A stretch of 54,860 bases of DNA, from sequence record SRR31156797_762; one strand, written 5' to 3'. The stretch's first letter is position 1; the number at the start of each line of letters is the position of its first letter. Positions 16,263-25,099 of this stretch are shown here, piece by piece. Below the pieces are notes generated by a model. That model did not search any database, was not told the origin of the DNA, and saw only the letters and a program-made list of their open reading frames with translations. Made by a program: the position numbers and the translations under genes.

Positions 16263-17288
16263 TTAATAACCTTCTTTTATTCCGAACGATTTTTCCAGTT
16301 TAAGCTTATTATTACCTCTGGATATGAGTACTAAATAATCACCTTCATTAATAATTTGATCGTTTGAAGGATCTTTGATCAATTGGTTATTTACAACCAG
16401 CCCTATTAATATCGCATTCAAACTTTTTTTCATTTCAACAAACGAATCAAAATAAGATTTGCCTTTGTAAGGGTTGTTCTCAGTTACCTTAAATTGCTTA
16501 ATATCCTGATCAGCATCTTCAACACTTGTTGATATTAAATCAGAAGTGTATTCGGCTACATGTGGCTCAAATAAATAACTGGCTACCATTCTTGAAGCAA
16601 CTTCGTGACGCGCTACCACATGCTGAACACCTGTATTCTCAAGGGTTTCTTTAAGCTCCGGGTTTGTGCAATTTATAATGATGTTTAAATCTGGGTACTC
16701 TTTTTTAATGTTTAGCACAAAAACCAAGGTATCGGTATCTTCCTTAAAGTTGATAAAAACGGCTTTGCTTTTTGTGAGATTTACCTTTTCGTAGGCCTGC
16801 ATATTTTTATAATCAGCAAACAAGGCAAAACTATGATCGCTTTCGTAAAGGTCGCTAAACAACTCCAGATCGTTTTTTGAATTTGTGACTAATGCAATGT
16901 GATGTCCGGCGTGGTATATTTGATCAGCCACTTGCTGCGCAAACTGATTCCAGCCGATTATAACGTAATGATTTTCGAATCGGGTACCAAAGTAACCGTT
17001 TTTCTTTTTTTCCATAAAATTGTTGATTCTATAGGTTATTTCACCAATAATATATCCAAGTATTCCAAGGCTTCCGAGAATAATAAATAAGCCCAGTATT
17101 TTCCCTATGGTTGTTACCGGGTAAAAATCGCCATAACCCACTGTGGTTAGCGTTACCACTGAATACCATAATGCATCTGTAATTGATTTTATATTTGCAT
17201 TGGGATCGGTACGTTCAACCAGAGAGATAATATATATCAAGCTCAGGTATAGCGCAATGCCAATGTAAAAAAGCTTTTTATTCTTCAT
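16263..17288 (-). CDS. Two-TM potassium channel with RCK (TrkA-N/TrkA-C) gating domain, MthK/Kch-like
   Basis: TTVGYGD selectivity filter between two TM helices; HYVIIGWN Rossmann-like RCK domain. Confidence 0.93.
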   Translation of the reverse strand: MKNKKLFYIGIALYLSLIYIISLVERTDPNANIKSITDALWYSVVTLTTVGYGDFYPVTTIGKILGLFIILGSLGILGYIIGEITYRINNFMEKKKNGYFGTRFENHYVIIGWNQFAQQVADQIYHAGHHIALVTNSKNDLELFSDLYESDHSFALFADYKNMQAYEKVNLTKSKAVFINFKEDTDTLVFVLNIKKEYPDLNIIINCTNPELKETLENTGVQHVVARHEVASRMVASYLFEPHVAEYTSDLISTSVEDADQDIKQFKVTENNPYKGKSYFDSFVEMKKSLNAILIGLVVNNQLIKDPSNDQIINEGDYLVLISRGNNKLKLEKSFGIKEGY

Positions 17289-17407
17289 GTCACAAGAATA
17301 AGTTTTAGGGTTTACTTTTACAAGTATACTATATGAATTTTAATTGCGATTAAGTTAAAACATATGTTTGAATTTGAATAATAAAATAAGAGTTGTTTGA
17401 CTTATGT

Positions 17408-17415
17408 TATATTTG
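17408..17415 (+). promoter_or_regulatory. Bacteroidota -7 promoter box for the GT11 gene
   Basis: TATATTTG, 35 bp upstream of the ATG. Confidence 0.5.
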
Positions 17416-17450
17416 TGATCTTTTTATTAAAACAATAGCGCTAGTAATTT

Positions 17451-18299
17451 ATGATTATCATTAGTAAACATACAAATCAGTTGTGTAATAGACTTTTTAC
17501 CTATCTTCCAATTCTGTCTTATGCTTTGGAAGCCAATGAACCAGTATGTTTTCTTTTTCAATACAAACAATATGATTCATTCTTTCCAAATCTTAAAAAA
17601 GAAGGTATAAAATCTTACTGGAAAGAGAATAGTAGGAAAAATAGTTACTTCAGTTTATTATTCAATGGAATTATTAGAGGTGTCAATTATTTTGTTCATG
17701 TTGTTTTGATGCCTGGAGAAAAGATTCCATTACATAAACCTTTAGGTATATTGTTCAACCCTAAATGGAGAGAGGTACGTCATGATAAGGCTTATATAAA
17801 TAAGCATTCTGAGAAATTAAGATATCTATTTTCTCCAGCTAAAGAAGTTTGGGGAAGTATTGATGCACTATGGAAAAAGCAAGCAGGTGAATATATTACT
17901 GTTGGAGTGCATATAAGAAGAGGGGATTATCGAACTTATAAAAATGGGATTTGGCATTTTGATTTCGAAGTTTATAAAAAATATATGCTTCAATTAGAGT
18001 CTGTACTAAAGGATGAAAACAAAGCAGTTCGTTTTTTTGTGTGTTCAAATGAAAAGATAGAGGCCTCTCATTTTAATGGATGCAATGTAATCATGCAGGA
18101 AGGAGATGATATGATATTTGATTTGTATGCGCTTTCTCGCTGCGAATATATTATTGGTCCACCAAGTACCTACTCACAATGGGCATCTTTTTATGGTAAA
18201 AAACCATTGGCTGTATTAGTTGATGCAGATTCAGAACTAGCGGAAAAAGATTTTTCAATTATAGAAACTTTGAATAACGATTTTTATAAAAAGAATTAA
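17451..18299 (+). CDS. GT11-family alpha-1,2-fucosyltransferase-like protein
   Basis: QLCNRLF, GVHIRRGDY, DLYALSRC and STYSQWASF motifs. Confidence 0.85.
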   Translation: MIIISKHTNQLCNRLFTYLPILSYALEANEPVCFLFQYKQYDSFFPNLKKEGIKSYWKENSRKNSYFSLLFNGIIRGVNYFVHVVLMPGEKIPLHKPLGILFNPKWREVRHDKAYINKHSEKLRYLFSPAKEVWGSIDALWKKQAGEYITVGVHIRRGDYRTYKNGIWHFDFEVYKKYMLQLESVLKDENKAVRFFVCSNEKIEASHFNGCNVIMQEGDDMIFDLYALSRCEYIIGPPSTYSQWASFYGKKPLAVLVDADSELAEKDFSIIETLNNDFYKKN

Positions 18300-18652
18300 T
18301 GGCCGGGAGGGATGCAATTGTCTATCTCATTATCCCATTTAATGTTGGTATTAAACATCTTACTTAACTCTTTAAACTGAAGTGTTTTTTGTTTGTTACA
18401 ACTCGATAATTCAATGTAGCACCAACCGCTTTCTGTAAATGTGTGCAATGCCAAATGCGATTCTGCGAGTAGCCAAAATGCGGTAAAACCGTTTACAGGA
18501 AATTGGTGTGATGAATAATTGAGGGTTTGAAATCCTGCTTGAGACAAAATATCAGAGAAGGCATCCTTTAAAATAGTTTCGTCAACAATCTCAATCCATC
18601 CTTTTAAATTAAATATTTGAGGAGCTAACTCTTTATGTTGTATTTTATTCAT
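18296..18652 (-). CDS. speD: S-adenosylmethionine decarboxylase proenzyme (short, pyruvoyl type)
   Basis: GFTAFWLLAESHLALHTF with the E-S self-cleavage site; next to an aminopropyltransferase. Confidence 0.85.
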   Translation of the reverse strand: MNKIQHKELAPQIFNLKGWIEIVDETILKDAFSDILSQAGFQTLNYSSHQFPVNGFTAFWLLAESHLALHTFTESGWCYIELSSCNKQKTLQFKELSKMFNTNIKWDNEIDNCIPPGH

Positions 18653-18685
18653 ATCGTACTTTTTACGGTTTTGTAGATGTAGAAG

Positions 18686-20236
18686 CTAATATAAGTCCCA
18701 ATTGCCTTTCAGGTAGTATTTGTATAGAACCGGGTCGTGAATTTTATTCACTTTCACAGAGTCTGATTGTCCCGGATATACATCCTTACCAAAGGATGTA
18801 ATCAATTTCACAGCATTCTGATCCAGCCACTTGGTTTCAATTTTAAAATCCAGCTCCTGTAATCTTGTTTTTAACGGGAATTTCTCATTTTCTTTGATCC
18901 CCAGAGACCATCCCCATTCACCTAATGAAATCACATGGTTGTGTAAAGGAATTGTTTTAAATCCGGCACTTTTCATGGTGTGAAGAATACATTTAAAAGC
19001 TTTGGTAGCAAAATAAGGACTTCCGGCCTGTGTTATAATAATTCCATGCGGTCGCAAATGTCTGTATGCAATTTTATAGAATTCTTCAGAGTATAAACGT
19101 CCTAATTCCACTGTTCTTGGATCAGGAAGATCTACAATAATAACATCGTAAAAACGCTTGTTTTCACTTAAAAAGGTAAATCCATCTTTATTTAAAACCT
19201 CAACTTGGGGATTTAATAATGAACCTTGATTTAGTTTGGTTAGCATGGGATGTTCTTTTCCTAACCTGGTCATGGCTGGATCAAGGTCTACCAATGTAAT
19301 TTTATCACATTGCTCATATTTCAGTAACTCTCTCACTGCGCAACCATCGCCTCCTCCAAGTACTAATACTTCTTTAGGGTTGGGATGAAGAGTCATAGCA
19401 GGATGAACCAAAGGCTCATGGTACATCATCTCATCCATCGTACAAAGCTGAAGGTTGCCATTTAAATACAACCAAAAATCATCTTGCCATTGCGTTATCA
19501 CAATGCGTTGATATTTGGTTTGTTCAGCATAAACGACCTTGTCTTTGTATTTCTTTTGCTCACCATATTTAATAATCGGATCAGCCATAAAAACGCCGCC
19601 AACCAGCACAACCATAATTCCAACAATAACAAAGTTGAAAATGGACTTATATGTGGGGCTGATGAATTTTCTTAAAAAGAAAAATACCCCAATAGCAACA
19701 CTAAAATTAACCAAACCCAGAATAAAAGGGGTGTAGTTTATACCTAAAAAAGGAATACCTATAAAGGCAAAGAAAATACCTCCCAGCAAACTTCCATAAT
19801 AATCGTTCTCTAATACCTTGGATATATTTACTCTCAGATCTTCGTACTGATCGTTAATTCGTGTCACTAATGGAATTTCCATTCCGATTAAAATACCAAT
19901 GGCAATGCTGCAACTGTATATTAAAATAGATAAGGATGCCATGTAGGCAGACGCCGTATATACGATAAGTGGAACGAAGGAAACAACCAGTGAAAGAATA
20001 AATTCCAGTATAAGAAATTTCTCTGTCAGATTATGCTCAAATGATTTACTGATCCGGCTGCCAAGTCCCATGGAAAACATCATGGTTGAAACGATGAGTG
20101 CCCACTGCATAGTCGAGTCTCCAAGAAAGTGAGTCGCTAATGTAGACAATAAGTATTCAGCTACTATTCCACTAAAACCTGTAGCAAAAATCGCAGCCAT
20201 TAAGATGGCAGAGTATTTATTTCTAATTTTTAACAT
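18686..20236 (-). CDS. speE: Polyamine aminopropyltransferase (spermidine synthase family) with N-terminal multi-TM domain
   Basis: About 7 TM segments, then YHEPLVHP, VLGGGDG, VDLDP and IVDLPDP motifs. Confidence 0.93.
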   Translation of the reverse strand: MLKIRNKYSAILMAAIFATGFSGIVAEYLLSTLATHFLGDSTMQWALIVSTMMFSMGLGSRISKSFEHNLTEKFLILEFILSLVVSFVPLIVYTASAYMASLSILIYSCSIAIGILIGMEIPLVTRINDQYEDLRVNISKVLENDYYGSLLGGIFFAFIGIPFLGINYTPFILGLVNFSVAIGVFFFLRKFISPTYKSIFNFVIVGIMVVLVGGVFMADPIIKYGEQKKYKDKVVYAEQTKYQRIVITQWQDDFWLYLNGNLQLCTMDEMMYHEPLVHPAMTLHPNPKEVLVLGGGDGCAVRELLKYEQCDKITLVDLDPAMTRLGKEHPMLTKLNQGSLLNPQVEVLNKDGFTFLSENKRFYDVIIVDLPDPRTVELGRLYSEEFYKIAYRHLRPHGIIITQAGSPYFATKAFKCILHTMKSAGFKTIPLHNHVISLGEWGWSLGIKENEKFPLKTRLQELDFKIETKWLDQNAVKLITSFGKDVYPGQSDSVKVNKIHDPVLYKYYLKGNWDLY

Positions 20237-20282
20237 GTCTGAAGAACATCTTTAAAAAAGATCGGTATGTCAGAGAATAAAC

Positions 20283-20307
20283 AAAAACAGGGTCTGAATA
20301 AACCCTG
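20283..20307 (-). terminator. Intra-operonic terminator or stabilising hairpin after DUF350
   Basis: Minus strand CAGGGT-TTATTCAG-ACCCTG followed by TTTTTG. Confidence 0.6.
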
Positions 20308-20334
20308 CTTCTATTTTTTATATTTTGTTTTGAT

Positions 20335-21210
20335 TTACAAACACCAGGTAATTAAAACCGATCCGCCAACATAGGCAAAGGCTTCAATGATGGCAGCACC
20401 CACATTGGGTTTTTCCTGATTGATAATTTCATCCGTTAAACGCTGACCCGGAAGAAGGATTTTATCTGTTAGGTAACGCATTACCGGAAGCAGAATGATA
20501 CCAAGTACTAATTCAAATCCAGCTTCAGTAAAAGTTGGTATCCATCCATCAAAATCGCCTGCAATTCCATGACGAATTAAATTAGCAATAGCTATTAAAG
20601 CTCCTGCAAATCCAACTCCAACAGCCACATTGTCTTTTTCAATGTGCTCATGAACATCGTAAGGAGTGATGAGTTGATAAACAGCTGCAGCAATAATAAG
20701 CGCCAGTTGTCCGGCAGCCCAGAATACAACAGCAGAGAGAATCCCATGTGAAAGGTTGCCTACTTCAGTTTCTCCACTTACCGCACCAAAAATAATTAAT
20801 CCGGAAGCAATAGAAACAGCACCTTCAATCACACCTGAACCGGAGTTTCGATCGGTTATTATCTCCTTTTTAACAGAGAATTTACGTAAGATGATTTTGT
20901 CATTTAACCAAATAGAAAGGTTTAATAAGATAATGGACAAAGTACCATAAATAAGGATGTCAATCATATCTTGAAGCAGTCCTCTGGTAGGGCCGACAAT
21001 GGCACTTCCAATTGCGAGCAAAAGACCAATAAAATAGCCAACGTGAGCAAAAGCAAAGGCCAGATTATCTTTATCAACCAGCTCTTCTTTTATGCTAAAA
21101 CCTCGGTTTACCATTTGATACACGAGTTTTCCCAGGAAAAAAATCACAAAACCTACAGCGATATAGGCAATTGCATCATATAATATTGTTGAAATATCTG
21201 ATAGATTCAT
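20335..21210 (-). CDS. DUF350 (YjfL-like) integral membrane protein with duplicated domain
   Basis: Repeated (E)EL/I...N.A/G motifs (EELVDKDNLA, KEIITDRNSG, EHIEKDNVA, DEIINQEKPNVG) between TM helices. Confidence 0.88.
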   Translation of the reverse strand: MNLSDISTILYDAIAYIAVGFVIFFLGKLVYQMVNRGFSIKEELVDKDNLAFAFAHVGYFIGLLLAIGSAIVGPTRGLLQDMIDILIYGTLSIILLNLSIWLNDKIILRKFSVKKEIITDRNSGSGVIEGAVSIASGLIIFGAVSGETEVGNLSHGILSAVVFWAAGQLALIIAAAVYQLITPYDVHEHIEKDNVAVGVGFAGALIAIANLIRHGIAGDFDGWIPTFTEAGFELVLGIILLPVMRYLTDKILLPGQRLTDEIINQEKPNVGAAIIEAFAYVGGSVLITWCL

Positions 21211-21238
21211 TGTTTTTAATTTTTCAGGTTAAAGATTA

Positions 21239-22072
21239 TTATTTACCAAATCCACCACTTCGACTGCGTGATGATGAACTGCTATATCGGGATGAACTTC
21301 TGGTACTTCGCGAGCTACTTGAGCTACTGGAATATTTTGAACCCGATGAATAACTTCTGGAAGAACTAGCAGAGCTTGATCTGGAAACCTGGCTTCTAAC
21401 CTGACTTTTGAAAGTAGACGGTTTTGATGCCCATGTTGTATTTCTACCTGAACGAGAGGTGTATGATTTTGTCCCATATACTCTTGATCCTGATGGTCCA
21501 TAATAGGGTCTGGATCCATAATATCCACCTCCATAATAGTCATTCCAATACGAGCGGCGAACAGGATAAGTCATCATATTAAACATAGAAGACATAAATG
21601 CATATCTGCCGTAAAATTCCCAAAAGGAACCACCATCTCTTTGTACCCAGTGACCATATCGTTCGTTACCTACATAGTGATTGTAACCTGCAGGTGAGGC
21701 AACTTTGGAAACCTTGCCGTCTTTTTTAGAAGCGATTTCCATACCCATATTATCAACATTTTGGCCAAAATAAGCTTCAGGAACTTCTTTCCAGTCTGTT
21801 TGATTGGAAACAACCGTATCTGGCTTTTCAACAATCACATTGTACTGGTGGAAGTATTTTCCATTTCTCGAATCCATATCAAGGAGAATGATGGAGAAAT
21901 TATTTTCAGCAGACAGATCTCTAATAATTTCATCTACCGGAGATTTTTGCCAATTTTGAGCTGTTTGTACAACCGGGCTTGAATATTGGCGAGAAGCCCT
22001 TCTGTTACTGCAGGTTTTTAAAATAAAAAATCCGAGAATAACAGCAATAATAACTTTTGCAATTCCGTTCAT
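21239..22072 (-). CDS. Membrane-anchored hypothetical protein with Tyr/Gly- and Ser/Arg-rich low-complexity tail
   Basis: N-terminal TM or possible lipobox (LKTC); conserved-looking YVGNERYGHW...FWEFYG core; tail ends SRSRSGGFGK. Confidence 0.85.
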   Translation of the reverse strand: MNGIAKVIIAVILGFFILKTCSNRRASRQYSSPVVQTAQNWQKSPVDEIIRDLSAENNFSIILLDMDSRNGKYFHQYNVIVEKPDTVVSNQTDWKEVPEAYFGQNVDNMGMEIASKKDGKVSKVASPAGYNHYVGNERYGHWVQRDGGSFWEFYGRYAFMSSMFNMMTYPVRRSYWNDYYGGGYYGSRPYYGPSGSRVYGTKSYTSRSGRNTTWASKPSTFKSQVRSQVSRSSSASSSRSYSSGSKYSSSSSSSRSTRSSSRYSSSSSRSRSGGFGK

Positions 22073-22090
22073 TGTGTTTAGATTTTGGGT

Positions 22091-22633
22091 TTATTTAGAG
22101 GCAGGTAATATGTTTGATATTTCAAATTCTTTGATAACAATTCCAATGGAAGCTTCAAATTCTTTTTCGTCCCATTGTTCAATGGTTAATATTTTTTGTC
22201 CTTCTTCATCTTCAAAGTCCCATGATCTGAATTCTTCCCATTGATCACCTTTGGCAATATCATGGAAATACCCCGGAGCTTCACTTTCTAACAGATAGGT
22301 AACTCCATCATGTATAATTTTTTTAGGTGGTTGTTGTTGATTCATCAAAACCTCAGGTAAGTTTTCATCCAAGGCTCTGACTTTAATTTTTTTGGTTAGG
22401 CTAATTTCAAGCTCATCATCTTCCTCAATGGCTAAATAACGAGTTAGAGATCCATTGCTTACTTTAAACTCCCGGGTAAAATAATTTTCGCCCCAATCGT
22501 ATTCATAAATTGCCTGAACCTCCCAGGTAGAAAGGTCATATTCAAAAACAAAACCAACATCCAGGTCCTGAATCCGGATGTTGGTACTATCGTAATGAGG
22601 TTCTTTTTTCTTAAAAATATCAAAGATACCCAT
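22091..22633 (-). CDS. DUF4178-like protein
   Basis: Two beta-rich acidic halves with aromatic motifs (YEYDW, WDFED, IEQW); position within a pspA-DUF350-speE operon. Confidence 0.75.
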   Translation of the reverse strand: MGIFDIFKKKEPHYDSTNIRIQDLDVGFVFEYDLSTWEVQAIYEYDWGENYFTREFKVSNGSLTRYLAIEEDDELEISLTKKIKVRALDENLPEVLMNQQQPPKKIIHDGVTYLLESEAPGYFHDIAKGDQWEEFRSWDFEDEEGQKILTIEQWDEKEFEASIGIVIKEFEISNILPASK

Positions 22634-22649
22634 GTTTTACTTTTATTAA

Positions 22650-23351
22650 TTATGATTGTTTTAGCTTGGCTTTTAACTCTTCTAATGAGTTGGATGCTTT
22701 TACATTGTTCTCAGATAAAACATCGTTGATTTCTTCATCAATGCTTCTGTTTTCCATCGCAATGTCTCCATAAGCTTCGCTCATAGCTTCTTGTTGTGCT
22801 ACTTTTTCTTTCATTTTTTCAAGCATCGAAACGGTTCCGGAACTATCAATTCCGCTTAGTTGCTTGTTGATTTTTTGAGTAGCACTACTCACTCGAGCTC
22901 TGGCCTTAAGTGTTCTCAGTTCGTTTTCGTAACTTGAAATAGTACTTTTTAGCTTTTTAATGTTTTTATCTAAAGCAGCAATGTTTGTATCAAACTTATC
23001 CACTTCAGTTTGAGCTCTTGAAGCAGCCTCAATCGCTTCTTCTTTTCTGGCCAAAGCTTCAGTTGCTAAACGATCAGCTTCAGCTATATCTAACTCACCT
23101 TTTTCAGCTTTTTGAATTAAAAGAATGGCTTTTTGTTCGTAATTTTTAGCCATTTCTTTATTGGTGGTTAAATCTTTTTTGCTTCTGATAGCCAAAGCTT
23201 TTACTTCAGCTAAAGCTTGTAGGCTTTTGTCTAAATCTTTTTTTAGATCACGGATTCCCTGCTCCGTCATTTTAATAGGATCTTCCAGTTTGTCAACAAG
23301 TGCGTGCGCTTCCGATTGTCCTACTTTAAATATTCTGTTAAAAATTCCCAT
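22650..23351 (-). CDS. pspA: PspA/IM30 (Vipp1, bacterial ESCRT-III-like) family protein
   Basis: MGIFNRI amphipathic start, EDP motif, long coiled coil, LKARA, terminal LEELKAKL. Confidence 0.95.
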   Translation of the reverse strand: MGIFNRIFKVGQSEAHALVDKLEDPIKMTEQGIRDLKKDLDKSLQALAEVKALAIRSKKDLTTNKEMAKNYEQKAILLIQKAEKGELDIAEADRLATEALARKEEAIEAASRAQTEVDKFDTNIAALDKNIKKLKSTISSYENELRTLKARARVSSATQKINKQLSGIDSSGTVSMLEKMKEKVAQQEAMSEAYGDIAMENRSIDEEINDVLSENNVKASNSLEELKAKLKQS

Positions 23352-23362
23352 TTGTGTTTGTT

Positions 23363-23758
23363 TTAAGCTTTAGAAAATTCGATTAATTCAGAAGAGTACT
23401 CAGAAAGTAATAACTTTAATGAGTTAAGAGAGGCTTCCAGTTCATTTAGGTCAAGATTTTCCAGTTGAAGCGTATCTCTGTAAATTACTTTCTTACCAGA
23501 CTCATCAAGACAAAAAGCGCCATGTACTACCTCGCGATTTTTCATAAGCAGCGATTTAAAGATGGCTTCGGTTCCGGCACTCATTTCAAATAATAGTCCC
23601 TCAATAATAACGATACTGTCTTCGCAATCGATGATTACGTTACTGATACCGTCTTCTTCTTTTTCAATTACCACTAGTTCTTCCTCGGTGTTTTCCGAAA
23701 CAATGTGGTATTCTAAACCTAAAAGGTAATCTTTTACCTTATCAAAATATTCACTCAT
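23363..23758 (-). CDS. YbjN / CesT(Tir)-chaperone-fold protein (YjfI-like)
   Basis: Small acidic protein with LLMKN...HGAFCLD...RDTLQLENLD.NE; first gene before pspA. Confidence 0.8.
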   Translation of the reverse strand: MSEYFDKVKDYLLGLEYHIVSENTEEELVVIEKEEDGISNVIIDCEDSIVIIEGLLFEMSAGTEAIFKSLLMKNREVVHGAFCLDESGKKVIYRDTLQLENLDLNELEASLNSLKLLLSEYSSELIEFSKA

Positions 23759-23938: not shown

Positions 23939-25099
23939 TTAAAATTCACCCAAGCCCCATACTAATGAAATATTTACATACCCAATATTTCCACTGTATC
24001 CGTCAAGCTTGTACTTAGTAATGTAGCTAAAGCCTCCATCTACTTTTAAACTAAAATAACTCTTGTAATCGGTATTATAAATTGATTTATGAGAAAACTC
24101 TATAATTTTAATCTCAGTGTGTAAACCCGGGCCACTGCAAAAGGAGTTGAATATTTTTAGTTCTTTATCATTATCATCTACATCATCAAAAATGTTACTT
24201 TGCAGATAACCGCCGGAAACAGAGATATAAGGGGCGAGTTGGAGATGTTGATTTCTTAGAGCGAAATATCCCATCTTAAGGCCTGCGTCTAAATATGAAA
24301 AGCGTTCATCTTTTTCAAAGAGATATGTTTCATTATCAGTATTTATGGCTGAAAAGGGAATTTGAAGTTTGTGTCCACTTCCATTTAAATATAATGAACA
24401 ATAAACTTTACCGATATTAAAGTCTACTGACATATTAAAACCTGCGTTTGAGGGAAAATGATTGTTGAGCTTTCCTGTGGTTATATTTGTTCCGGAACCG
24501 ATAGAAAATGCCATTGCATATTTAGTATATCCAGGTGGGAGATACTCTTTTATGAATGCATTAAACCTGGATTCGGGATACTGTTTTTTATAGTTTTTAA
24601 GTTTTTGTGTGTATTCCTTATCGGGATTCTCGACTTTTAGCAGATATACAAATAATTCTAAAAGATCTTGTTCTTCTTTAGGTATTGGAGCAGAAATTAA
24701 ATCGTTATAAATGGAATCTCTTTGATCTTGGATTTCCTTCCAAAGAACATCTAAAATGTTAAAGTTATTATTGTAATGAGATTGTTGGTTGTAATCATAA
24801 TAGTTTAAAGCAATTTCAACTGTTTTCTGCCAGTTTCGTAATAACAAGTTAATGTATAGTTCTTCGGTATAATAAAAGGCGCTATAATTACTTTGTGCGG
24901 TTTCTTCATTTAAATAATTATATACATCGCCTATTTTATTAAAATCCTTCTTATTTATGCTCTTTGCGATTATTTTACGGCCATTATTAATAATGATTTC
25001 AGTACTGTCTACATAGGATTTTACTTCATCTTCAATTTGAGCTGTAACTATGGTGCTAAGAAAAAATATAAAAGCCAGGCTTGAAATAAAGTGTTTCAT
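23939..25099 (-). CDS. Hypothetical secreted protein: N-terminal helical domain plus probable C-terminal beta-barrel
   Basis: Signal peptide (VTA-Q); alternating-residue strands in the C-terminal half; terminal Phe. Confidence 0.7.
   Translation of the reverse strand: MKHFISSLAFIFFLSTIVTAQIEDEVKSYVDSTEIIINNGRKIIAKSINKKDFNKIGDVYNYLNEETAQSNYSAFYYTEELYINLLLRNWQKTVEIALNYYDYNQQSHYNNNFNILDVLWKEIQDQRDSIYNDLISAPIPKEEQDLLELFVYLLKVENPDKEYTQKLKNYKKQYPESRFNAFIKEYLPPGYTKYAMAFSIGSGTNITTGKLNNHFPSNAGFNMSVDFNIGKVYCSLYLNGSGHKLQIPFSAINTDNETYLFEKDERFSYLDAGLKMGYFALRNQHLQLAPYISVSGGYLQSNIFDDVDDNDKELKIFNSFCSGPGLHTEIKIIEFSHKSIYNTDYKSYFSLKVDGGFSYITKYKLDGYSGNIGYVNISLVWGLGEF

Follow-up and report, generated by a model that had tools for sequence, protein, structure and literature searches.

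We analyzed a DNA stretch of 54,860 nucleotides from sequence record SRR31156797_762 (hereafter the window), which carries on its minus strand an operon for a CesT/Tir-like protein, a PspA/IM30 protein, a DUF4178 protein, a lipoprotein with a long tail, a double DUF350 membrane protein, a membrane-fused aminopropyltransferase (APT) and SpeD, an S-adenosylmethionine (AdoMet) decarboxylase homologue (Table 1). The cluster is a real copy of a described but unsolved kind of membrane-stress operon, and the operon itself is not new. What we add to the published operon is the conservation of a terminal lysine on the tail protein, with its contrast in operons that carry a ligase, and the build of APT, in which one half of a major facilitator superfamily (MFS) fold and a seventh helix precede a catalytic domain predicted to face outward. 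From these sequence features, we propose that a periplasmic APT aminopropylates the C-terminal Lys of its partner, with decarboxylated S-adenosylmethionine (dcSAM) arriving via the half-MFS domain and no free spermidine being made. We give this reading as a whole an even chance, and we lean slightly further towards the terminal Lys being the acceptor. The acceptor of the widespread membrane-fused aminopropyltransferases and the physiological substrate of YgiC/YjfC are two published open questions, and both are testable with short synthetic peptides. If true, the proposal would place SAM-derived chemistry beyond the cytoplasm and have it supplied by a transporter that is part of the enzyme itself; it would also add a new protein modification in bacteria and tie polyamines at the molecular level to the PspA/SPFH membrane-remodelling modules.

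The tail protein, its terminal lysine and the ligase operons

The tail protein consists of a hydrophobic N-terminus, Cys21, a folded domain (approximately residues 41-240), a disordered Ser/Arg tail and a C-terminal Gly-Lys. An earlier note on this DNA, made from the letters alone, had described it as a transmembrane (TM) protein with a Y/G/S/R tail; the tail is confirmed, but the protein is probably a lipoprotein, as judged from a Cys past the hydrophobic segment, present in 115 of 120 homologues. The last 60 residues contain 11 basic and no acidic residues. The structural model has a predicted local distance difference test (pLDDT) value of 75, with residues 238-273 below 50, and the best match of a fold search reached Z 2.7, so that no known fold was recognised, which does not establish a new fold. 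The closest family-bearing Atlas clusters, UPF0323 (0.81) and DUF1190 (0.77), are leads only, and there was no Pfam match to DUF1190.

Among the best 120 of 512 matches to the tail protein, the C-terminal residue is Lys in all 120, and it is preceded by Gly in 119. The 40 residues ahead of it are of low complexity and contain just 4.7% Lys. In relatives, both AAA and AAG encode the terminal Lys and all three stop codons follow it; stop-codon context as the cause of the Lys was therefore rejected.

For a broader survey, metagenomes were scanned with the membrane domain of APT and the best 80 of 591 loci were kept. A first partner rule, which took the most hydrophobic open reading frame (ORF) upstream of DUF350, gave 33 Lys-ended partners out of 56, but DUF4178 fusions escaped it and some of its picks were shadow frames. 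With a second rule, blind to the last residue and devised after the outcome of the first was known, a partner was chosen in 58 of the 63 loci with DUF350, and 55 of these 58 end in Lys (21 lipoprotein homologues, 17 DUF4178-TM-tail fusions and 17 small TM proteins). In two of the three other picks, a tail ending in Lys can be seen by eye, and the third lies at a contig edge; the five DUF350 loci without a pick comprise one with a Lys-ended tail and four at contig edges. As a background, a Lys end was found in 12 of 234 other named genes of the surveyed loci, or 30 of 252 when fusions are included. Lys-ended partners also occur in APT loci of Ensifer, Novosphingobium, Alteromonas, Burkholderia and Ralstonia, and six small APT partners from Bacteroidota genomes end in Lys. 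Fusions of DUF4178 with the tail protein were seen in P0028 and P0081, plus 17 in another subtype.

The tailed partners of glutathionylspermidine synthetase (GSP)-like ligases of the YgiC/YjfC type behave differently, with no Lys end in 27 cases, 17 ending in Gly and 10 in Ser. This set is made up of E. coli YjfM and YgiB, 8 partners from 139 plasmid records, those of the 13 strongest of 28 Bacteroidota loci and 4 from 113 phage records. E. coli YgiC and YjfC are annotated as peptide--spermidine ligases. This ligase type, for which triglycine is a model substrate, needs a small C-terminal residue with its carboxyl free, like the Gly of glutathione. The requirement of APT for a primary amine on a four-carbon chain fits the Lys side chain. 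In YgiBC/YjfMC-type operons, an equivalent product would be obtained by ligating spermidine to the carboxyl of the Gly/Ser-ended tail, and both chemistries would thus leave a flexible tail with a polyamine tip. We hold with somewhat less than even confidence the wider claim that this is an undescribed periplasmic modification, in which the half-MFS/APT protein would export dcSAM and modify the Lys of its partner, while the terminal residue of the partner would switch with the enzyme class (Lys, or Gly/Ser with a YgiC/YjfC ligase, as in E. coli and many phages) and so name the substrates of both families. For YgiC/YjfC, the physiological substrate is stated to be unknown in a passage of a 2025 review (PMC11762307).

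Other ligase loci were encountered. In one Bacteroidota family, a double DUF350 occurs along with a GSP-like ligase that is very far diverged (E 1e-14 to 1e-20), and in some genomes the two are neighbours (loci L031-L037 and L169-L178; genomes G095, G119, G131, G183, G187, G195 and G199). In two Bacteroidota ligase loci (L167 and L168), a speD of their own lies immediately upstream, and a tail protein that ends in Gly is encoded downstream. Among phages, those of Ochrobactrum, Ralstonia and Aeromonas (L184-L187) carry a ligase with a Gly/Ser-ended lipoprotein, one of them with a K+ channel-like gene upstream. A scan of viral contigs with YjfC gave no match, and the genome nearest to the window (G001) had no match to PF03738, the GSP-synthetase-like ligase family.

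Predicted topology and active site of the aminopropyltransferase

Against NCBIfam, APT scored 572 bits with PRK03612 (cut-off 472) and 40.6 bits with MFS_SpdSyn, barely over the cut-off of 40, and it stayed under the cut-offs of canonical SpeE (TIGR00417, 159 vs 250 bits; PRK00811, 185 vs 260 bits). In the AlphaFold model (pLDDT 88), seven N-terminal helices are followed by a domain of the spermidine-synthase fold. Residues 1-191 resemble one six-helix half of FLVCR2 (Z 18.8, root mean square deviation 2.7, 184 residues aligned), with many further MFS matches at Z 15-18, and the remainder resembles the Thermus thermophilus aminopropyltransferase 1uir (Z 32.7) and the E. coli enzyme 3o4f (Z 26.5). 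A Foldseek search with the whole model returned spermidine synthases only, and a hidden Markov model of the membrane domain had no significant match among the sequences of the PDB. In comparison with an MFS transporter, APT holds one six-helix half, so that a two-halved transport path would be possible only as a dimer.

The mean number of Lys plus Arg per loop, over 66 sequences, is 2.1, 0.05, 3.9, 0.03, 2.4, 0.14 and 3.5, then 0.8 past the seventh helix, and the alternation is equally strict in 13 diverse APT sequences. This argues for an N-in orientation with the chain outside past the seventh helix, which would set the catalytic domain in the periplasm, on the side of the lipoprotein tail. 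We consider, on this predicted topology, that the catalytic domain most probably lies outside the cytoplasm. In the fusion-type and small-TM partners, the tail follows a single TM helix. Furthermore, a flavin (FAD) oxidoreductase gene is present in 26 of the 80 APT loci, and 21 of these 26 have a twin-arginine motif, which from the sequences points independently to extracytoplasmic chemistry. Exported by the twin-arginine route, the oxidase of these operons may remove the aminopropyl mark or oxidise it. The oxidoreductase gene follows APT (26 loci, among L076, L078, L083 and L105-L147), and its product often has a lipoprotein-like Cys after the twin-arginine motif.

Within the membrane domain, four acidic residues (E27, E78, E120 and D145) are kept in 50-51 of 51 APT sequences, which would suit residues that handle a cation like dcSAM. 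In an alignment with E. coli SpeE, all 51 sequences retain GGGDG, the catalytic Asp (Asp369), DxxD, YHE and the Gln of the dcSAM site. The fold and the catalytic residues are thus shared with canonical SpeE, and APT differs from it by its half-MFS domain and seventh helix, which replace the first N-terminal strand of SpeE, by its predicted periplasmic domain and by a replaced acceptor-pocket Tyr. This Tyr, in the PTYY motif of SpeE, is F, L or M in the APT sequences, and we take it, from the motif, to match human Tyr241. The roles of human Asp173, Asp176, Tyr79 and Tyr241 in the active site are described in a passage of PMC13619349.

Taken together, these features suggest the following course. 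SpeD, by family knowledge, makes dcSAM in the cytoplasm, and the half-MFS bundle of APT, probably as a homodimer, would pass it over the inner membrane to the enzyme's own catalytic domain, set in the periplasm by the seventh helix. There, the aminopropyl group would be transferred to the epsilon-amine of the C-terminal Lys on the long, basic, disordered tail of the lipoprotein, as its conservation suggests, and the product would be a spermidine-like arm on a flexible tether. More speculatively, and with considerable doubt on our part, DUF350 could read the polyamine-tipped tail as a tethered cation, and DUF4178 with the CesT-like protein could link it to a swappable cytoplasmic effector, which would be PspA with the K+ channel in the window and SPFH or TelA elsewhere.

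Weighing the proposal against other explanations

Complex prediction of APT 216-516 with tail residues 243-277 and S-adenosylhomocysteine gave a score of 0.41, compared to 0.00 for the best control, with a partner pLDDT of at least 42 and at least 51% of contacts shared between runs. In the calibration, 51 of 78 solved pairs and 2 of 108 mismatched pairs reached the mark; of the pairs that reached it at 0.60 or below, only 5 were solved ones, next to all 4 passing mismatches. The prediction gives weak support to the proposal and shifts our odds only slightly. Several points weigh against the proposal. A score of 0.41 falls in a range that is oftener wrong than right, and Lys277 was not seen in the active site. 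In addition, for 13 of the 80 APT loci the available sequence shows no tail gene (2 of them at contig edges), and the surveyed loci are kin, so their counts are not independent and a Fisher test was given no weight. The ligase partners were picked by hand and are not independent either, and 10 of the 27 end in Ser, not Gly. The ligases themselves have no evident export signal, and the parallel therefore requires modification before export or an unknown route. A speD gene was detected in just 26 of the 80 loci (BLAST with single queries, often on short contigs). Finally, the Pro of the HTxPE motif is missing in 20 of 20 SpeD copies of the family and kept in 29 of 29 other SpeDs; according to a passage of PMC10407285, one proline, possibly this one, distinguishes AdoMet decarboxylases from arginine decarboxylases.

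The main rival to aminopropylation of the Lys is that a periplasmic APT modifies a non-protein envelope substrate (a lipid head group, lipid A or lipopolysaccharide, a peptidoglycan amine or a small amine), with the Lys tail acting as a substrate-mimicking plug or tether that is released under stress. This explanation, which we regard as unlikely but worth keeping in view, accounts equally for the Lys conservation, the topology and the weak complex score, and it gains from the 13 loci without a nearby tail gene and from Ravi 2024, where the substrate is left open in the passages concerned. However, it leaves the Gly/Ser ends beside ligases unexplained, and one would expect a primary amine to react once bound in an active site that is intact. 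A different use of the same residue is known from Braun's lipoprotein (Lpp), which is attached to peptidoglycan by its C-terminal Lys. The terminal Lys could likewise be a handle for L,D-transpeptidase attachment, or a shield against C-terminal proteases, with APT acting elsewhere. Such a handle would suit a lipoprotein whose tail is long and flexible and whose last residue is always Lys, but none of the 27 similarly exposed tails of the ligase operons has a Lys end, the recurrent neighbours include no recognised transpeptidase, and attachment could come after aminopropylation instead of replacing it; we therefore hold this explanation to be improbable.

The donor side raises two further explanations. 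The APT domain could be a receptor or use another donor, SpeD having become an arginine decarboxylase or being in decay, and the module would then sense or deliver amines. Besides the missing Pro and the 54 loci in which SpeD was not found, this explanation draws on the score of SpeD (49 bits vs a TIGR03330 cut-off of 76) and on its faster divergence, with 55-70% identity vs approximately 80% for the neighbouring genes. It has little probability in our view, as SpeD retains the E-S cleavage site and the His68 and Cys83 equivalents, whose roles in processing of class 1b AdoMet decarboxylases are described in a passage of PMC10407285, and is the only AdoMet decarboxylase match found in G001, the SpeDs of 29 other loci keep the Pro, and the dcSAM-binding and catalytic residues of APT are invariant. 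From the sequences, the Marinilabiliaceae SpeD lineage may have altered specificity. Least probable of all, with hardly any weight on our part, is that APT is a membrane-tethered spermidine or spermine synthase that supplies free polyamine at the site of PspA, or a housekeeping enzyme. Its GGGDG and DxxD motifs are intact, and it is the only strong spermidine-synthase-family match in G001 (two others are weak, near E 1e-4), beside the only SpeD. Conversely, G001 encodes a distinct carboxy(nor)spermidine decarboxylase that scores over its cut-off and therefore has another spermidine route, the acceptor pocket is altered in a domain predicted to be periplasmic, and the tail gene and APT were both found in 10 of the 61 family genomes searched and neither in the other 51, so that the cassette is accessory. 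Bacterial membrane-APT fusions are moreover reported as experimentally uninvolved in spermidine or spermine synthesis, in a passage that cites Li 2019 (PMC12803844). We consequently hold with high confidence that APT is not a spermidine synthase. The earlier note had proposed a membrane-tethered enzyme that aminopropylates a local, non-housekeeping substrate, which stays plausible, within a polyamine-synthesis module, a label that on these grounds is unlikely to apply.

Orphan seven-TM APTs with neither a tail nor a DUF350 gene nearby were seen at L103, L104, L117, L125, L070, L080, L084, L086, L088, L091 and L116. They may have partners encoded at other sites, or act on different substrates.

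Known systems, exchangeable modules and organisation of the locus

In the passages of Ravi 2024 on this operon type, it forms the second CesT/Tir-PspA group, with the SO_3765 region of Shewanella oneidensis as prototype, and polyamine monitoring or aminopropylation of other substrates is proposed (PMC11237479). The likeness covers CesT/Tir, PspA, DUF4178, a lipoprotein with a low-complexity tail (Ctha_1186 there, and probably here), an 8-TM DUF350 and a 7-TM spermine-synthase fusion, almost gene for gene, which bears out the guess of the earlier note that such neighbourhoods had already been noticed in comparative genomics. The window copy differs in gene order, adds SpeD and an RCK K+ channel, which these passages place with the third, ligase group, and has no ribbon-helix-helix (RHH) gene. 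The tail gene stands before DUF350 as in the Shewanella oneidensis row of the supplement, with signal, Cys and low-complexity tail present, and the tail lipoprotein is probably the Ctha_1186 protein. The terminal Lys, the substrate and an outward-facing catalytic domain are not named in these passages or in the one supplement file covered, and a literature search, with most subscription papers beyond its reach, found no paper that names the Lys end, a switch between Gly and Lys or an active site facing outward. A passage of PMC10948618 states that there are no experimental data for the six-gene operon type.

Several other known systems share parts of this organisation. The E. coli yjfI-yjfJ-yjfK-yjfL-yjfM-yjfC and ygiB-ygiC operons likewise combine a CesT-like and a PspA-like protein, DUF350, a tailed lipoprotein, a polyamine enzyme and often a K+ channel, but have an ATP-grasp ligase, a DUF1190 lipoprotein ending in GG and a single DUF350, where the window has APT, a GK end and a double DUF350. 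Clusters of an MFS-SpdSyn fusion, AdoMet decarboxylase and DUF350 were reportedly described in 2019 by Li, Kurihara, Kim, Liang and Michael. These clusters (NF037959, PRK03612) resemble the window in having a membrane-bound SpdSyn-like domain beside a class 1b SpeD and DUF350, and going by the passages that cite them, their substrate was left unidentified. With the canonical Psp system (pspF-pspABCDE), only the PspA/IM30 protein is shared; the window has no neighbouring pspB/C/F, and no sigma-54 consensus was found upstream in 20 sequences.

The genes from CesT to speD follow each other with gaps of 11, 16, 18, 28, 98 and 33 bp, and their order, strand and spacing agree with the earlier note, as do the families by Pfam and NCBIfam. 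For the first gene, described there as YbjN/CesT-like, the CesT part is upheld (CesT_Tir_1, E 8e-52) and YbjN is only a weak match.

Table 1. Positions of the operon genes and neighbouring features in the window.
Feature	Position	Strand	Evidence
K+ channel, 2-TM, with RCK (TrkA-N), 341 aa, TTVGYGD filter	16263..17288	-	Ion_trans_2 and TrkA_N
GT11 glycosyltransferase	17451..18299	+	PF01531 E 5e-6; GC 0.30
SpeD, class 1b AdoMet decarboxylase homologue, 118 aa	18296..18652	-	PF02675 (AdoMet_dc) E 6e-15
APT, 7-TM aminopropyltransferase, 516 aa, half-MFS six-helix bundle at 1-195	18686..20236	-	Spermine_synth E 5e-41; PRK03612 572 bits
Hairpin, then T-rich run, between DUF350 and APT genes	20288..20307	-	Folding, window and relatives
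Double DUF350 membrane protein, YjfL-family, about 8 TM, 291 aa	20335..21210	-	PF03994, two stretches, E 6e-57
Tail lipoprotein (probable), 277 aa	21239..22072	-	No Pfam match; signal, Cys21, Gly-Lys end
Codons of terminal GGFGK including Lys277 (proposed aminopropyl acceptor)	21242..21256	-	G276 and K277 invariant in 76-sequence alignment
DUF4178 protein, 180 aa, PspA-like N-terminal helix	22091..22633	-	PF13785 E 1e-23
PspA/IM30 (ESCRT-III-like), 233 aa, YjfJ-like	22650..23351	-	PF04012 E 4e-43
CesT/Tir-like chaperone-fold protein, 131 aa, YjfI/BacA-like position	23363..23758	-	PF22550 E 7.8e-52; YbjN only 2e-4

A scan with APT gave 20 related loci (L003-L022) from Saccharicrinis, Labilibacter, Plebeiibacterium, Carboxylicivirga and other Marinilabiliaceae. 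The order CesT-PspA-DUF4178-tail-DUF350-APT-SpeD is kept in all 20, with the CesT gene syntenic in 19 and cut off by the contig end in the remaining one. G001 is 96% identical to the window across the cluster. The K+ channel gene, which the same note had assigned to the operon, lies 3' of speD in 19 of the 20 loci (at 1-30 bp in 7) and is part of the cluster in relatives. GT11, already thought there to be inserted, occurs at that site in only 1 of the 20 loci (L003) and in G001 (L001); it is therefore a local insertion and was rejected as a member of the system.

PspA scored 58 bits against the canonical TIGR02977 (cut-off 243), is 24% identical to E. coli YjfJ and is the sole PspA match in G001. 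As the earlier note had said, there is no pspB/C/F family among the 12 ORFs scanned, the rest of the genome not having been searched for them. That note had also made PspA the centre of the system and the place of aminopropylation; the first idea does not hold up, and the second is at odds with the predicted topology. By the same single-query BLAST, PspA was detected in 5 of the 80 APT loci, SPFH in 14 and a K+ channel in 6, and the Alteromonas plasmid copy has a TelA-like gene where CesT-PspA stands elsewhere; PspA is therefore an exchangeable accessory. The fixed core is DUF4178, tail, DUF350 and APT, and the effector module is exchangeable. The active site would moreover lie, by predicted topology, on the membrane face opposite to that on which PspA assembles. 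In the Alteromonas megaplasmid pAMCP48-600 (L059:6947-13605), APT and speD are accompanied by the TelA-like gene, DUF4178, a tail protein of 510 aa that ends in Lys, and DUF350, and PspA is missing. DUF350 has an 8-TM hydropathy profile and conserved charged residues (23 sequences), and we propose it as a reader or scaffold. DUF4178 had no similarity to YjfK/DUF2491 by BLAST or by hhalign, the latter with 3 YjfK rows only.

No conserved Bacteroidota promoter or sigma-54 motif was found upstream of CesT in 20 sequences, and a sigma-70 scan was uninformative (38 sites vs 38.3 expected). A strong hairpin lies at an equal position between DUF350 and APT in most of the 19 relatives folded, a count made with no per-locus shuffle control. 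Since a T-rich run comes after this hairpin both in the window and in most relatives, the transcript could be stepped at this point; the hairpin is a possible attenuator, operator or processing site that splits the structural genes from the enzymes. Several relatives have a second short inverted repeat after it.

Further genes lie beside the cluster. A 386-aa exported protein with no Pfam match is encoded upstream of CesT in the window (23939-25099, minus strand); its gene is missing from this site in G001, and genes of similar size are found there in L009 and L017. In nine relatives (L005, L006, L009-L012, L014, L019 and L022), a bacterial PH-domain gene (126 aa, bPH_1 E 8e-52) stands between speD and the K+ channel, a site that in the window has no PH gene and is occupied by GT11. 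PspA (start 23351), DUF4178 (start 22633), YjfK (L023) and the PH-domain protein have a similar short, amphipathic-looking N-terminal helix, which might serve them all as a membrane anchor or as the site where the CesT-like protein binds.

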